A stretch of DNA of 64,000 bases, from sequence record MG748547, one strand, 5' to 3'. Below the pieces are notes generated by a model. The model searched no databases, was not told the origin of the DNA, and saw only the letters and a program-made list of their open reading frames with translations. A program made the position numbers and the translations under genes. This stretch comes from Escherichia phage EP75. Positions 4,453 through 63,099 of the stretch are shown here, piece by piece. How positions within the stretch are numbered: position 1 is the first letter of the stretch; every line of letters begins with the position of its first letter.

Positions 4453-4482
4453 ATAATACCCTATCCCCCTTTATTGAAGAAC
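4453..4482 (-). promoter_or_regulatory. sigma70-like promoter candidate (GTTCTT-N18-TATTAT) with TTCAATAAA element and hairpin; -10 lies in the hairpin loop
   Basis: minus-strand reading CGTTCTTCAATAAAGGGGGATAGGGTATTATTGCTCTATCC; same architecture at 7577..7606 and 12194..12223. Confidence 0.35.
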
Positions 4483-7576: not shown

Positions 7577-7606
7577 ATAATAACCCATTCCCCTTTATTG
7601 AAGAAC
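7577..7606 (-). promoter_or_regulatory. sigma70-like promoter candidate (GTTCTT-N18-TATTAT) inside TTCAATAAA + near-perfect 10-bp hairpin followed by TTTTCTTTT
   Basis: minus strand CGTTCTTCAATAAAGGGGAATGGGTTATTATTAGCCCGTTCCCCTTTTCTTTTG; may also act as terminator. Confidence 0.35.
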
Positions 7607-21774: not shown

Positions 21775-21858
21775 TGGTGTGAGTGGATGGATTTGAACCA
21801 CCGCGCTGTTACGGGGAGATTTACAGTCTCCTGCATTCGACCGCTCTGCCACACTCAC
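21775..21858 (-). tRNA. tRNA-Tyr (anticodon GTA), class II with long variable arm, CCA encoded
   Basis: hand-folded cloverleaf: acceptor GTGAGTG/CACTCAC perfect, anticodon loop CTGTAAA, T-arm GGTGG-TTCAAAT-CCATC. Confidence 0.8.
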
Positions 21859-22253
21859 ATTTAGTCTACCGCCGCGTGCTGGGCCACGCTTGAGGACATC
21901 GGCCATCCTTCCTCAGCTAATCCACGCGGCGGTAGATTTGGATCAGAGTGTACGGTGTAGCATTCCGCAGGGGTGCACCTACTGTAGCCCTTCCACTCTG
22001 AAATTGGTGGGTGTTACTTCCGTCGGGTTCAGATTCCGTTCGGCTATTGGACTTCGCTTCAAGAGCTTGTCGTTCGCGTACTTCGTGCTTACTTGCTTTC
22101 GTTCACACCCATTGTTTGTCGTCGGGTGGGGGATTCAAACCCCAATCTTTAGTTTGCGTTTCTTCAAAGCTATCATATGTTCACTTTGAATAATAAACTC
22201 CCCTGGACATCATAACAGGATCTCTATTTCATCCTGCAAGACCCGACATAATA

Positions 22254-22329
22254 TGGCGACGATGACAGGACTTGAACCTGCGACATATGGATTAACAGTC
22301 CACCGTTCTACCGACTGAACTACATCGTC
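22254..22329 (-). tRNA. tRNA-Asn (anticodon GTT), CCA encoded
   Basis: hand-folded: acceptor GACGATG/CATCGTC perfect, D-arm GTTC-AGTCGGTA-GAAC, anticodon loop CTGTTAA, T-loop TTCAAGT. Confidence 0.85.
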
Positions 22330-22471
22330 AAATTTTGTGAAGACCAAACGCCGGATCGTAACGGTCGTATGTCTTCGGGTGGCTGTCGTTCTTGATGCTT
22401 ACCATGCGCAGATCATAAGACTGATTCTGCAGGACATACACCAACCACAGCTGTTTTATAAATTCCATCAT
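22328..22471 (-). CDS. small ORF (47 aa) between tRNA-Met and tRNA-Asn
   Basis: minus-strand ATG with GGTGAGG RBS; stop overlaps tRNA-Asn 5' end by 2 nt. Confidence 0.25.
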   Translation of the reverse strand: MMEFIKQLWLVYVLQNQSYDLRMVSIKNDSHPKTYDRYDPAFGLHKI

Positions 22472-22514
22472 AAAGATACCTCACCAAATTTTATTGAACA
22501 ACTGGTTTATTTAG

Positions 22515-22590
22515 TGGTGACCCTGGCTGGACTTGAACCAGCGACCAATCGATTATGAGTCGACTGCTCTAACCACTGAGCTACGGGGCC
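22515..22590 (-). tRNA. tRNA-Met/Ile2-type (anticodon CAT), CCA encoded
   Basis: hand-folded: D-arm GCTC-AGTGGTTA-GAGC, anticodon loop CTCATAA, T-arm GCTGG-TTCAAGT-CCAGC; one C-A mismatch in acceptor stem. Confidence 0.7.
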
Positions 22591-25558: not shown

Positions 25559-25873
25559 TCCGGAGCCTCACCGAATTGATTAAATGTCTCCATTATTATA
25601 TTGGAGATACGTTTATTGAATATAAACACAGGAATGGCCAATAAAATAATGACAGTGATTATTAATAGGTAAAAACTACTTTTCTACAACATCAAGAAAC
25701 TGTATCTTAACGCGGTGCCCTTCGAGTTGTGAGTGTTAACGAACAACGAGAAGCAGCCTCCATGGCTGCGGAATGGGACTGCCTGTCAAGGCGGTGTTAC
25801 GAGCGAGGGCTTTAGCCCCCTCGCGAGTATATTCGAATAAATTAACGCGCGAGAGCGTTTTGATTCCCTTTGG

Positions 25874-55678: not shown

Positions 55679-55745
55679 TGTCCTCAGTGCTGGGGGAATC
55701 ATATTCCCCCTCACTAATTACAAGAAAATGTTGAGGACTTAGATC

Positions 55746-58688: not shown

Positions 58689-59525
58689 ATGAAACCTGAA
58701 TTGCAAAACCTGTTTGAAGGCGTTAACGGCATCAGCCCAGATTTCCTGGATAAAGTATCCAATCTGCTGGAATCTAAAGTTGAAGCGGCTCGTCTGAAAG
58801 CTATCCAAGAAACCGAAGCAGCTGGCAACGCCGAGCGCCTGAATCTGGTCGAATCCCACCAGAAAGAAATCGCCGACCTGAAAGAAAATTTCATTCTGCA
58901 ATTGGCTGGGAAAGTTGACTCATTCCTCAATGCGGTAGTTGAAGAATGGGCTAACAAAAATGCCCCAGCTATTGACGCTCAGATCAAAACTGAAGCTGCT
59001 GAACGCTTCCTCACTGGTTTCTCCAACGTTCTGAAAGAAGCAGGTGTGAATTTCGCTACTGACCCAGACGGTCAGATCGCTGCTCTTACCAGTCGCCTTG
59101 CTGAAGCAGAACAACGCGCCAACATGGCTAATACCGAATTGAACCAACTCAAAGAAAGCGAAACTAAACGCCAGCGCACTGACGTGATTGATCGCATCTG
59201 TGAAGGTATGGTTGACACCAAGAAAGACACTGTCGTCAACCTGCTGGAAGGTATTGAATTCCAGACCGAATCTGAATTCGAATCACGTGTTCGCACCTTC
59301 CGCAATCTGGTAGAAGGCAAAGATGACTTCTCTGACAAAGTCGGCAAAGACAATGAAAAGGGTAAGCCAAATGGCGACAAAGATGAAAAGGACATCAAAG
59401 AAGGCAAAAAACCGAAAAAAGAAGGCGATGACAAAGACGACGATGATGACGATGACAAAGACGAAGTTGGTAAAGAAGTCAACGAATCCGTCCGTCGCCA
59501 GATCAGCGCCTTGCTGAACGGCTAA
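58689..59525 (+). CDS. prohead scaffolding protein (gp22-like)
   Basis: helical, highly charged, KDDDDDDDKDE tract near C-terminus. Confidence 0.65.
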   Translation: MKPELQNLFEGVNGISPDFLDKVSNLLESKVEAARLKAIQETEAAGNAERLNLVESHQKEIADLKENFILQLAGKVDSFLNAVVEEWANKNAPAIDAQIKTEAAERFLTGFSNVLKEAGVNFATDPDGQIAALTSRLAEAEQRANMANTELNQLKESETKRQRTDVIDRICEGMVDTKKDTVVNLLEGIEFQTESEFESRVRTFRNLVEGKDDFSDKVGKDNEKGKPNGDKDEKDIKEGKKPKKEGDDKDDDDDDDKDEVGKEVNESVRRQISALLNG

Positions 59526-59616
59526 TTTTAGCAGCCACAGCCCTCGAAAGGGGGCTTGATTTTGAACTACTAAGTAATTTCAACTTAACTGAATATCAAT
59601 GTAAGGAACGAGCATC

Positions 59617-60939
59617 ATGACTAAGAAACTTGTAACCGAAGAAATGCGCAAACAGTGGCTGCCAGTTCTCCAAAAAGAATCTGAAGCCATCCAACCTCTG
59701 TCTGCCGAAAACGTAACCATCCGTCTGATGCAAAACCAGGCCGAGTGGAACGCTAAAAACCTGGGCGAATCCGACGCTCCTGGTTCTGTAAACAGCACTG
59801 TCGGTAAATGGCAGCCAGTCCTGATCGACATGGCAAAACGTCTGGCGCCGATCAACATCGCAATGGACTTCTTCGGAGTTCAGCCGCTGTCTGGTCCTGA
59901 CGGTCAGATCTTTGCGCTGCGTGCTCGCCAAGGTATTGGTGACGGTTCCACCACCGCACAGGCGCGTAAAGAACTGTTCATGAACGAAGCCGATTCTGGC
60001 TACTCTGGTGATGGCACTGTACAGGCTGGTGACCCGTCAGGCTTCAGTCAGGCTGAGATCGAAGGTTCTGGCTCTGCTGTGACCACTATCGGTAAAGGTA
60101 TGCCGTCATCCGACGCGGAACTGCTGGGTACTACCACCAATCCGTGGGCGCGTGTTGGTATCACCGTTCAGAAAGCGACCGTTACTGCCAAGTCTCGTGG
60201 TCTGTATGCTGATTACAGCCATGAACTGCGTCAGGATATGATGGCAATTCACGGCGAAGACGTGGATAATATCCTGTCTGACGTGATGGTAACTGAAATT
60301 CAGGCGGAAATGAACCGTGAATTCATCCGTACCATGAACTTCAGTGCTGTTCGCTTCAAAAAATTCGGCACCAACGGTGTTGTTGATATCGCGCAGGACA
60401 TCTCTGGTCGTTGGGCGCTGGAAAAATGGAAGTTCCTGACTTTCATGCTGGAAGTTGAAGCGAACGGTATCGGTGTTGACACCCGTCGTGGTAAAGGCAA
60501 CCGTGTTCTGTGTTCTCCGAACGTGGCATCCGCTCTGGCGATGTCTGGCATGCTGGACTATGCTCCGGTTCTGCAGGAAAACACCAAGCTGGCTGTTGAT
60601 CCGACCGGCCAGACCTTCGCGGGTGTTCTGTCCAACGGTATGCGCGTCTATGTTGACCCGTATGCTGTAGCAGAATATATCACCCTGGCGTACAAAGGCG
60701 CGACCGCGCTGGATGCTGGTATCTTCTTCGCGCCGTATGTGCCGCTGGAAATGTACCGCACCCAGGGTGAAACCACCTTCGCTCCGCGTATGGCGTTCAA
60801 AACCCGTTACGGCATCTGTGCTAACCCGTTCGTTCAGATTCCGGCTAACCAAGACCCGCAGGTTTACGTGACTGCTGACGGTATTGCTCAAGACAGCAAC
60901 CCGTATTTCAGGAAAGGTCTGATAAAGTCGCTGTTTTAA
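59617..60939 (+). CDS. major capsid protein (gp23-like)
   Basis: extensive motif agreement with T4 gp23 (FGVQPLSGPDGQIFALRA, AKSRGL, AGVLSNGMRVYVDPYA, FKTRYGICANPF). Confidence 0.9.
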   Translation: MTKKLVTEEMRKQWLPVLQKESEAIQPLSAENVTIRLMQNQAEWNAKNLGESDAPGSVNSTVGKWQPVLIDMAKRLAPINIAMDFFGVQPLSGPDGQIFALRARQGIGDGSTTAQARKELFMNEADSGYSGDGTVQAGDPSGFSQAEIEGSGSAVTTIGKGMPSSDAELLGTTTNPWARVGITVQKATVTAKSRGLYADYSHELRQDMMAIHGEDVDNILSDVMVTEIQAEMNREFIRTMNFSAVRFKKFGTNGVVDIAQDISGRWALEKWKFLTFMLEVEANGIGVDTRRGKGNRVLCSPNVASALAMSGMLDYAPVLQENTKLAVDPTGQTFAGVLSNGMRVYVDPYAVAEYITLAYKGATALDAGIFFAPYVPLEMYRTQGETTFAPRMAFKTRYGICANPFVQIPANQDPQVYVTADGIAQDSNPYFRKGLIKSLF

Positions 60940-60968
60940 TAGCTAAAACAAAGACTTACGCTATAATC

Positions 60969-60998
60969 AAACCCCGCCATATGCGGGGTTTTCTTTTC
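60969..60998 (+). terminator. rho-independent terminator CCCCGC-CATAT-GCGGGG-TTTTCTTTT
   Basis: read directly after capsid gene. Confidence 0.6.
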
Positions 60999-61036
60999 TA
61001 AGATATGGGGTTATATTACTCAGAAAGGAGATCATT

Positions 61037-61882
61037 ATGACCCCGTATGTGTACAGAATAAAATCTAAACAAGGACATTTCTATTACGGATGTCGTTATT
61101 CCAAAGATTGCCATCCCGATGATTTGTGGGCAACATATTTCACTTCTTCCTCCCTGGTTAAATCTTTAATAGAAGAAAATGGGTTAGAATTCTTTGACAC
61201 CAAGATTGTTATGGTATGTGAAACTCCAGAAGATGCTCTGCGCGTAGAAGGATTATTAATATCAAAGACTCATAAGTTTCCTGGCTGTTTGAATCAATTC
61301 CTTTGTCGTAAAGATGGGACGCCTGTCCACCTGGGTACATATGGCACTCCTTCTGAAAAGGTACGACAGAAAATTTCTTCGTCAAACAAAGGTAAAAAGA
61401 GGACAAAGGAGACAAGAGAAAGAATTAAGTTAGGGAAAACAGGAACCACTTGGTCTGAAGCACAAAGGGATGGTGTCAAGGCTTTCCAACAAACAGAAGC
61501 GTACCAACAATTAAGAAACAAAATCAATACAACCAATAAGAATAGAACAAAAACTCCCGAAGAGTTGGCTTCCATTTCAGCTTCCCTGAGAGGACGTAAG
61601 AAGCCCGCTGGATTTGGGGAAAAGGTATCAGCCACCAATAAAGTAAGAAACTCTTCTCTGAGCATTTGGCAAACGAATAGAGCCAAACCATTACAACACG
61701 TTTGGGCTATGGCCGACCAATTCTATCAATTATGGAAGAATGAAGGTTGGGGGCATGAACGATTTTGTAACCGGATGAACGACGGGAATAATATTCGAGT
61801 GTTCTATAACATGTACAAAATGTTCAAATACGAAAATTGGGTTCCTATGGAAGACCCTGAATGGGTAAAAGATTTCATGTAG
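61037..61882 (+). mobile_element. GIY-YIG-like homing endonuclease (Seg-like) with NUMOD-type repeats
   Basis: YVYRIKSKQGHFYYGCRY at N-terminus; repeated basic motifs (TKETRERIKLGKTG; TPEELASISASLRGRK). Confidence 0.5.
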
Positions 61883-61942
61883 TTTTTCTTTATCTACCCT
61901 CAGTGCTATCATGATATTGTCTATCACTGAGAGATCTATATT

Positions 61943-62383
61943 ATGTCAAAAGAAAAATACATATTCATCAGCCCCGCTACGAAAGAGTTCTTCATCTCTG
62001 ACGTGAAAGATCGTGTTGAGAAGTTCCGCTACATGCGCAGCTATGGTCTGGCATCCGGTGATATTGATTATCAGTCACTGGACAATGATCGCCAAGATCT
62101 GATCGACGACGGTTGGCGTTTAGTTCCGTCCCCTCAGTACATTCATATCACGTTGTACTATATGAAGGACAGCGGGAAGTTCTATTCCGAAGGTGAACTC
62201 GTACTCAATCGAGGAGAAGCAGAAGCCGAACCTGCCAAAACCTGGATGTTGGCGATGGATCAGATCCGTGAATTGCTGGACTCCGGTAATCTGCCTGGCC
62301 TGATCAAGGGTTCAAAATTCGACGTGTTCGTTACTGGCCAGGGTCATCCTGGTGGATACCCACATCTGTTCCGTATTAACTGA
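61943..62383 (+). CDS. hypothetical protein
   Basis: 146-aa ORF. Confidence 0.45.
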   Translation: MSKEKYIFISPATKEFFISDVKDRVEKFRYMRSYGLASGDIDYQSLDNDRQDLIDDGWRLVPSPQYIHITLYYMKDSGKFYSEGELVLNRGEAEAEPAKTWMLAMDQIRELLDSGNLPGLIKGSKFDVFVTGQGHPGGYPHLFRIN

Positions 62384-62391
62384 GGTCAATT

Positions 62392-62766
62392 ATGAGCAAT
62401 TTACCACTGCTTCAAGTCGGTGACGTATTCATTCTCACAGAAGAAATGACCATTGAAACTCAGGTGCCTAAGCATTTCTTGTATTCTAATTGCAAGGGAG
62501 ATTGGCAAACGGACTCTGGTTATATCACCCCTGAGGGATTCTTCGGTTACATGCAAGGGCATTATGTCGTTACCAAAACAGCCCTACAAGGCGGTAGCAC
62601 TGGTCATGATCCATACCCTGACGGCCATCATGTTTGGGCACAGCATACCGAAAATGAACGCATCAGAATCTGTTTCTATCAGACAGGTAGTTTCAGGAAT
62701 ATGCACCGGAATGTTCCAGTAGTCGGAAAGGCTAAGGCGCAAACATGGACTTGGGAGAAATTATGA
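62392..62766 (+). CDS. hypothetical protein
   Basis: 124-aa ORF. Confidence 0.45.
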   Translation: MSNLPLLQVGDVFILTEEMTIETQVPKHFLYSNCKGDWQTDSGYITPEGFFGYMQGHYVVTKTALQGGSTGHDPYPDGHHVWAQHTENERIRICFYQTGSFRNMHRNVPVVGKAKAQTWTWEKL

Positions 62767-63021: not shown

Positions 63022-63050
63022 GTTTACTTCTTCAATAAACCCCGTATACT
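63022..63050 (+). promoter_or_regulatory. T4-early-like sigma70 promoter GTTTAC-N17-TATACT overlapping hairpin CGGGGTTTA/TAAACCCCG
   Basis: GTTTACTTCTTCAATAAACCCCGTATACT; same as 16141..16169. Confidence 0.5.
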
Positions 63051-63099
63051 TCATTCCATAAGCAGCACAACACTGACTCTGAAATGAAGGAACTACACC

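Follow-up and report, generated by a model that had tools for sequence, protein, structure and literature searches.

A probable free-standing Seg-type homing endonuclease gene past the major capsid gene of Escherichia phage EP75

Introduction

Which kind of gene occupies the slot directly past the major capsid gene of Escherichia phage EP75, and does its distribution among related phages fit that of a mobile element? This question was raised by an initial annotation of a 64,000-nucleotide stretch of the phage genome (sequence record MG748547; the entire stretch is referred to as the window), which read the ORF at 61037-61882 as a Seg-like endonuclease gene that follows the capsid-gene terminator, and called this position a frequent landing site of homing endonucleases in T4-like phages. 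There is precedent for such a site in segD of phage T4, which is located 50 nt past gene 23, between genes 23 and 24, and which a review of T4 mobile elements lists as uncharacterised (PMC2988022). The kind of element is well known in both T4-type and ViI-type phages.

The locus downstream of the capsid gene

The arrangement of the locus, with all features on the + strand, is as follows:

59617..60939, +, major capsid protein gene of the Gp23 type (Pfam Gp23, E=1.3e-122; PHROG 138 major head protein, E=1.5e-144)
60904..60939, +, final 12 capsid codons, where variation is concentrated and nearly all synonymous
60940..60968, +, intergenic segment found only with the endonuclease gene; includes a TATAAT hexamer and an ACTTAC box that is conserved
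60969..61001, +, intrinsic terminator for capsid transcription (9-bp stem at 60969-60991 with 6 GC pairs, then a T tract; from a terminator scan and RNA folding)
60989..61882, +, block of 894 nt that is extra in comparison with the empty site (T-rich duplicate, hairpin, Shine-Dalgarno sequence and endonuclease ORF)
61025-61030, +, Shine-Dalgarno sequence AAGGAG of the endonuclease ORF
61037 (ATG)..61882 (TAG), +, probable homing endonuclease ORF, 281 aa; Marshall_60 and its counterpart in phage Maynard are 100% identical to it
61883..61942, +, right junction, the ancestral post-terminator intergenic region, which matches empty-site phages directly past the terminator
61943..62383, +, downstream conserved gene (PHROG 4181), the right flank in Kutterviruses and not in other genera

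The position ascribed to the ORF proved accurate, with a Gp23-type capsid gene and a terminator with a 9-bp stem upstream. The gap between the capsid stop codon and the ORF measures 97 nt and has the intrinsic terminator inside it, and this terminator was found in filled and empty alleles alike. The 3.5 kb surrounding the ORF match Salmonella phage Marshall (KF669653; Kuttervirus, Ackermannviridae) at 99.9% identity. The label of a T4-like phage does not hold in the strict sense for this ViI-like Kuttervirus, but it does hold for the head module, which is of the T4 type and has T4-type scaffold and prohead protease genes upstream of the capsid gene. Hypermodified thymidines occur in the DNA of ViI-type phages. 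The ORF has a G+C content of 39.8%, compared with a capsid-gene value of 52.8% and with 44.7% over the entire window.

The ORF is intergenic and separate from the intact capsid gene, and is neither intron- nor intein-encoded. No group I intron or any other Rfam family was found in 59400-62500, and no transposition-type flanking repeats were found around the cassette. A tblastn search for paralogues of the endonuclease revealed none elsewhere in the 64-kb window. GenBank already annotates Marshall_60 as a homing endonuclease, and the present identification is therefore a rediscovery of a homology-based annotation.

When only the nuclease domain was used in tblastn, two places were matched in the Marshall and Maynard genomes. 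Taken together with the lack of a paralogue in the 64-kb window, these matches imply at least one more related endonuclease gene elsewhere in the phage.

Family and fold of the encoded protein

The protein has a modular order, in which a nuclease domain is followed by a NUMOD-type linker and a separate DNA-binding domain:

61037..61312, +, GIY-YIG catalytic domain, aa 1 to ~92 (Y6, Y16-Y17-G18, R20, E71, N86)
61334..61636, +, basic linker (aa ~100-200; three NUMOD3-like units)
61649..61879, +, C-terminal domain, helical and HTH-like (aa ~205-281), presumed to be the sequence-specific DNA-binding domain

The N-terminus of the ORF (MTPYVYRIKSKQGHFYYGCRY), which had been quoted correctly and described as GIY-YIG-like, carries the GIY and YIG motifs in the form of YVY (aa 4-6) and YYG (aa 16-18). 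Residues Y6, Y16, Y17, G18 and R20 are invariant across the 18 members of the family alignment, and Y6, Y16 and G18 are also invariant in 42 distant relatives. E71, at the position of the metal-binding Glu, and N86 are at least 90% conserved both in the family alignment and in that of the distant relatives, and the helix that holds E71 aligns with the 'EEAYMYEEE' helix of T4 SegE. R20, which is invariant in the clade, stands 3 residues past the Tyr of YIG (Y17), versus ~10 residues for the catalytic Arg of I-TevI (R27). The motif past YIG reads 'GCR' in the window protein, 'GAH' in SegD and 'GKH' in SegE.

Curated sequence models were indecisive by themselves. The protein scored below the curated Pfam threshold for PF19835 SegE_GIY-YIG (17.5 bits, cutoff 25), with no match to PF01541, and relatives encoded by a shorter allele of the gene came to 23.7-24.0 bits against PF19835 (cutoff 25). 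In NCBIfam only a sub-threshold grpIintron_endo match was obtained (16 vs 56 bits), only the generic homing-endonuclease model 'HEase' matched in PADLOC (1.7e-5), and PDB sequence searches, whether started from the single protein or from the family profile, returned chance-level matches only. The sub-threshold Pfam GIY-YIG models and the lack of PDB sequence matches would suit a protein of another fold or function that carries a GIY-YIG-like string by chance. This is highly improbable in view of what the broader searches returned. PHROG 314 'homing endonuclease' matched residues 1-136 with E=6e-40, and three further 'homing endonuclease' PHROGs cover residues ~105-279. In hmmsearch, the HMM of the 18-member family matched T4 SegD (33.1 bits) and, over the nuclease domain, T4 SegE (27.1 bits), and a broader HMM built from 41 distant representatives did so with 47.2 and 41.5 bits, respectively. 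These HMM matches and that of PHROG 314 bear out the Seg-like identity that had been proposed. A profile search of 1.84 billion representatives yielded 31,584 relatives at E<=1e-3, and among the 41 distant relatives sampled, Pfam SegE_GIY-YIG was found in 28 (E<=1e-3) and NUMOD3 in 32.

The GIY-YIG fold was established by structure prediction. The predicted structure has a mean pLDDT of 80.9, with values of mostly 83-93 in the N-terminal domain, 51-70 at residues ~91-140, 72-89 in the rest of the linker and mostly 87-95 in the C-terminal domain. The predicted N-terminal domain has a beta-beta-alpha-beta-alpha core, in which a three-stranded antiparallel beta-sheet is flanked by helices. When this model was compared with the PDB using Foldseek, the top three matches were to the I-TevI catalytic domain (1mk0, 1ln0; probability 0.97-1.00), and a fold search against predicted viral structures gave 189 matches at E<=1e-3, most of them named Seg-like, SegD or GIY-YIG homing endonuclease. 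In each of the three libraries searched, GIY-YIG nucleases or Seg-like endonucleases ranked first. Together with the matches to SegD, SegE and PHROG 314, the three fold libraries effectively rule out a chance resemblance, and the assignment to a different fold that would have refuted the initial annotation did not occur. We conclude that the ORF is very probably a free-standing Seg-type GIY-YIG homing endonuclease gene within a cassette of ~0.9 kb, and that its product presumably has endonuclease activity.

The repeated basic, DNA-binding-like motifs that had been noticed behind the N-terminus correspond to three NUMOD3-like units (aa 106-120, 123-137 and 173-188) in a linker with a pI of 10.6 and 24 K+R residues. 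The Pfam NUMOD3 model gave 14.8 bits when the linker was scanned alone, below its threshold of 20.4. T4 SegD is likewise built of a GIY-YIG N-terminus with a NUMOD3-type region behind it (its residues 30-179 align with the family HMM), although the similarity is remote and the two C-terminal domains show no sequence relationship. T4 SegE, whose family PF19835 is the best Pfam match of the window protein, lacks NUMOD3 repeats and has another C-terminus, whereas the window protein has three such units. I-TevI is encoded in an intron (the T4 td intron), unlike the free-standing window gene, and the two proteins share 15-18% sequence identity, with no zinc finger recognised in the window protein. 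Closer relatives are found within the Ackermannviridae, where the F-Lim and RC-2014 proteins belong to the same family as the window protein. The 'NUMOD3 motif family protein' of Dickeya phage RC-2014 is 64% identical and has the same post-capsid position, and F-LimVI, one of the F-Lim homing endonucleases of Dickeya phage LIMEstone1, is 52.6% identical over the nuclease domain. No biochemical characterisation of the F-Lim or RC-2014 proteins was found in the literature searched.

Position and polymorphism among relatives

All close homologues that could be placed (at least ~44% identity) are located ~80-105 nt 3′ of a Gp23-type capsid gene. They occur in Kutterviruses, in Dickeya phage RC-2014 (Limestonevirus), in Erwinia phage Bue1 (Nezavisimistyvirus), in Serratia phage 3M and other IMG/VR genomes, and on four metagenomic contigs, so that this placement spans at least three named genera. 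Same-position homologues from different genera are only 50-65% identical. The right-hand neighbours vary, as seen in Limestonevirus, Bue1 and the Logan contigs, and the neighbour lies on the opposite strand in locus L012, indicating that the capsid gene is the constant partner. Among more distant loci, 72 of the 80 best IMG/VR loci are not beside a Gp23-type capsid gene. T4 segD is similarly found immediately past the major capsid gene, but it is antisense to gene 23, whereas the window gene is co-oriented with its capsid gene, and its host belongs to the Straboviridae rather than the Ackermannviridae.

The presence/absence polymorphism that had been predicted among relatives was indeed seen, together with a definable empty site. 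The 3.5-kb region was matched by 286 phage records, 25 of which carry at least 80% of the 846-nt endonuclease gene. Phages that are otherwise near-identical (~95%) differ at this locus: the gene is missing from some, while others have it in a long, a short or a frameshifted form. In 97 records, the endonuclease-less arrangement of the Vi01 type is present to at least 80%; however, about 80 of these match in two pieces spanning ~1,318 nt, which points to an additional insert like that of Cba120 rather than the plain Vi01 layout. In the empty site (May, L102 and L104), GCGGGG is followed directly by TTTTTCTTTAT(A/C)..CCTCAGTGCTATCAT past the terminator, and this same TTTTTCTTTAT..CCTCAGTGCTATCAT sequence is found in the window from 61883 onward, past the endonuclease stop codon. 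Compared with the empty site, the window has an extra 894 nt (60989-61882) and its T-rich tract is duplicated.

The short allele, which encodes 215 aa, sits at the same site in three phages:

L005 1722-2369, L006 2077-2724 and L007 1740-2384, short allele (S117, STP07 and ST2)

In the nuclease domain, the long and short proteins share ~50% identity, and the short one lacks 66 aa of linker, equal to two NUMOD3 units, leaving one unit versus three. Over their last 189 nt, however, the two alleles are 99.5% identical, a mosaic that implies recent recombination and a shared DNA-binding specificity. Phage ST2 combines Marshall-type capsid flanks with the short allele, and copies of the endonuclease gene are 98-100% identical in phages whose flanks differ. 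Near-identical copies in differing flanks, with mosaic junctions inside or beside the cassette, indicate recent horizontal exchange. The copy in Escherichia phage PhaxI (L003 1938-2785) is 97.9% identical and has two +1 insertions 15 nt apart that split the gene into ORFs of 133 aa and 57 aa; it is either a decaying pseudogene or the product of a sequencing error.

The post-terminator slot is hypervariable even where the endonuclease is absent. Cba120, SFP10 and May carry other small-ORF cassettes past the capsid terminator, the sets of small ORFs differ by phage, and KE31 has the endonuclease and three extra ORFs in the slot:

L002 1977-2382, post-capsid small-ORF slot of Vi01
L015 495-1600, post-capsid small-ORF slot of Cba120
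L016 1695-2333, post-capsid small-ORF slot of SFP10
L017 1698-2275, post-capsid small-ORF slot of May
L004 2842-3535, post-capsid small-ORF slot of KE31

The patchy distribution might also reflect repeated deletion or replacement in a hypervariable slot instead of ongoing homing, in which case the gene would be a vertically inherited and possibly decaying or domesticated relic, whose product may only bind DNA or regulate, in the way that I-TevI represses its own promoter. The many unrelated small ORFs that occupy the slot in different phages are in line with such a history, as are the 50-65% identity of same-place homologues across genera, which fits long residence, the two +1 insertions in the PhaxI copy, and the location of the gene 3′ of a terminator with a fully occluded start codon. 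We nevertheless regard a relic as quite unlikely, because the catalytic-motif positions are all conserved across the clade, because the 98-100% identical copies in differing flanks and the mosaic junctions speak for recent horizontal exchange, and because the capsid-gene end sorts with endonuclease status across genera, as detailed in the following section.

A linked haplotype at the 3′ end of the capsid gene

Among eight Kutterviruses, 15 of the 36 sites in 60904-60939 are variable, versus a median of ~2-3 in other 36-nt bins. Six of the ten codons with at least three codon variants fall within the last 12 capsid codons, where all changes but one are synonymous. The window differs from Vi01 at nine synonymous positions within the last 12 codons, and the 52 nt before these codons show no difference. 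The capsid end of the window uses AGG and ATA codons.

The variation is linked to the presence of the endonuclease gene. All endonuclease-less loci examined (Vi01, Cba120, SFP10, May and seven readable IMG/VR loci, the latter found by this exact 18-mer) end the capsid gene with ATC AAA TCT CTG TTC TAA (ATCAAATCTCTGTTCTAA), and no endonuclease homologue was found within the 1.0-1.5 kb readable downstream of these loci. May belongs to another genus (Taipeivirus) and shares its capsid ending with Vi01. The ATCAAATCTCTGTTCTAA ending was seen in 0 of 19 endonuclease-carrying loci, which have 12 distinct capsid-gene endings. These endings comprise a wide range of synonymous variants, and in other genera Gly or Asn replaces Ser. 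An ACTTAC box behind the stop codon, or a one-base variant of it, is conserved in the endonuclease-carrying loci and linked to the ending, and is replaced by ACAGGTTTTGATAA or ACAGCTGATCTGAA in the endonuclease-less loci. The association compares ~10 endonuclease-less with 19 carrying loci; these loci are not independent in phylogeny, and some genomes are represented in both IMG/VR and GenBank.

We read the pattern at the capsid end as a probable footprint of the endonuclease, which may be a recognition or cleavage site to which carriers are immune by recoding, or else a co-conversion tract that is carried along with the cassette; the haplotype association could stem from hitch-hiking donor sequence and not from immunity. 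For T4, it has been described that free-standing endonucleases cleave in a neighbouring gene with co-conversion, and that SegE, which cuts in the adjacent gene uvsW, brings about non-reciprocal exchange (PMC2988022). We tentatively propose that this endonuclease clade is a specialist for the 3′ end of the Ackermannviridae capsid gene, with ATCAAATCTCTGTTCTAA as the candidate site of recognition or cleavage, and that repeated attack and repair may have caused the near-synonymous recoding of the last 12 codons, bringing the rare codons AGG and ATA into the late gene that is expressed most highly. The two alleles share a DNA-binding domain and differ in nuclease and linker.

The same enzyme might have been selected mainly for interference competition (marker exclusion), in which cutting the capsid region of relatives would benefit the host phage, so that the element would not be purely selfish. 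The candidate target lies in or beside the late gene that is most essential, the clade has stayed at one locus in several genera, and free-standing T4 endonucleases are known to cause marker exclusion of neighbouring genes (PMC2988022). Such a role is mechanistically indistinguishable from homing with the present data and compatible with the homing endonuclease that we favour; as the main selected role, we consider it possible but rather unlikely.

A predicted hairpin over the start codon

A predicted RNA hairpin overlaps the beginning of the endonuclease ORF:

61003..61048, +, RNA hairpin of 13 bp (5′ arm 61003-61015; 3′ arm 61036-61048, comprising the AUG and codons 2-4)

RNA folding of 60935-61060 returned the terminator together with this hairpin (MFE -38.4 kcal/mol, z = -5.4), in which the Shine-Dalgarno sequence AAGGAG is located in the loop. 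The pairing probability at +1 to +12 is 1.00, versus a median of 0.49, and ranks first among the 71 heuristically called genes of the window. Pairing of the start region recurs in the long and short Kuttervirus alleles, in RC-2014 and in Bue1, and in another register in L012. In L011, L013/L021 and L014, which make up four or five of the more divergent loci, the hairpin is missing or takes another form. The alleles are separated by one clean compensatory double change, at a Tyr codon (TAT/ATA versus TAC/GTA), and third-position changes of a Pro codon are also seen in the hairpin. When its 6-bp core was compared with shuffled upstream sequence for each locus, the individual signals were weak (P 0.02-0.13), and support for the hairpin therefore comes from the full 13-bp stem in the window and the one compensatory change, not from broad covariation.

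Based on the folding model, the hairpin is predicted to be a translational attenuator. Hairpins in the initiation region restrain I-TevI, I-TevII, I-TevIII, segB and mobE of Aeh1, and a late promoter inside the hairpin releases the block (PMC2988022). The window hairpin occludes the AUG and not the Shine-Dalgarno sequence, unlike that of I-TevI, which moreover has a late promoter inside, whereas none was found in the window hairpin.

A promoter of its own in the 5′ arm of the hairpin, following the late-promoter logic of I-TevI, was considered and is unsupported by consensus, motif and sigma-70-type scans. The T4 late-promoter consensus TATAAATA occurs once in the 64 kb where 2.3 occurrences are expected, the motif TATGGNNTTATA is not recurrent in the window (4 found, 4.1 expected), and the sigma-70-type scan detected no promoter between the terminator and the endonuclease ATG. 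The more divergent loci carry a TATACTTCT box that resembles the -10 element of a promoter motif recurrent in the window, and these loci may thus have such a promoter. Because a strong terminator lies upstream and no promoter of its own was found, expression of the endonuclease may be very low, and the most economical reading is that of a promoter-less cassette with low-level translation from transcripts that read through the terminator.

Proposed mechanism and meaning

By analogy with SegA-G of T4 and with I-TevI, the C-terminal domain would bind the empty site during mixed infection with a cassette-less relative, and the tethered nuclease domain would make a double-strand break nearby, most plausibly in or beside the last capsid codons. 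Recombinational repair from the carrier genome would then copy the cassette and adjacent capsid-gene sequence into the recipient. The carrier genome itself would escape cleavage, its capsid-gene end and the sequence behind the stop codon having been recoded. Low expression would be maintained by the upstream terminator and the 13-bp hairpin over the start codon. We infer the catalytic activity, the cut location, homing and translational control from these same analogies.

The endonuclease cassette is probably an ordinary selfish DNA element. What is added here is the delimitation of the cassette and its empty site, the proposed specialisation on the capsid 3′ end, the linked recoding, the two alleles with a common DNA-binding domain, and the hairpin, which together are useful but not surprising. 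The practical value is limited: a correct annotation is confirmed, and the post-capsid region is explained as one of the few differences between otherwise near-identical Kuttervirus genomes. Kuttervirus phages have been widely proposed for the biocontrol of Salmonella and E. coli. If the predicted target at the capsid end is real, the locus would offer a clean case of a selfish nuclease shaping synonymous codons in an essential, highly expressed structural gene, and it would matter for typing and engineering because the 3′ end of the capsid gene would then not be a neutral marker. The long and short alleles would form a natural test of linker length against the distance between binding and cleavage in GIY-YIG enzymes, a class of nucleases that is used as programmable nuclease modules.

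Further motifs and a distant homologue

Three tRNA genes (Tyr-GTA, Asn-GTT and Met-CAT) lie clustered at 21775-22590 on the - strand of the window. A promoter-like motif, TTCAATAA-N8-16-TAWWMT, recurs in the window (4 found versus 0.11 expected), and a variant was found 5′ of two + strand genes. The TTCAATAA class probably represents the phage's own early, sigma-70-type promoters:

4453-4478, 7577-7602, 12194-12219 and 25595-25620, -, TTCAATAA-N8-16-TAWWMT motif
16142-16171 and 63023-63052, +, variant TTTACTTCTTCAATAA..TATACTTC

A perfect TATAAT hexamer (CGCTATAATC) is located at 60958-60966, directly 5′ of the stem of the capsid terminator, and the promoter scan found no -35 element matching it. 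The hexamer is present together with the Marshall-type left flank (Marshall, PhaxI, KE31, barely and ST2, the last of which has the short allele), and is absent from the short-allele phages S117 and STP07 and from endonuclease-less phages.

In Aeromonas phage PX29 (NC_023688 138186-138548), a homologue of the nuclease domain with 36% identity is annotated '17B homing endonuclease' and lies within or beside a split terminase large-subunit gene (17A). The 599-aa PX29 'Gp17 terminase' model also matches the endonuclease fold, and PX29 may carry an endonuclease-terminase fusion or insertion.

Past the endonuclease ORF, an inverted repeat, CTCAGTG-N19-CACTGAG, occupies 61899-61932 and is kept in empty-site phages. 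The exact 10-mer CCTCAGTGCT occurs twice in the window (55682-55691 and 61898-61907, both +); both copies are intergenic and just 5′ of a + strand gene, and the one at 61898-61907 starts the CTCAGTG inverted repeat.
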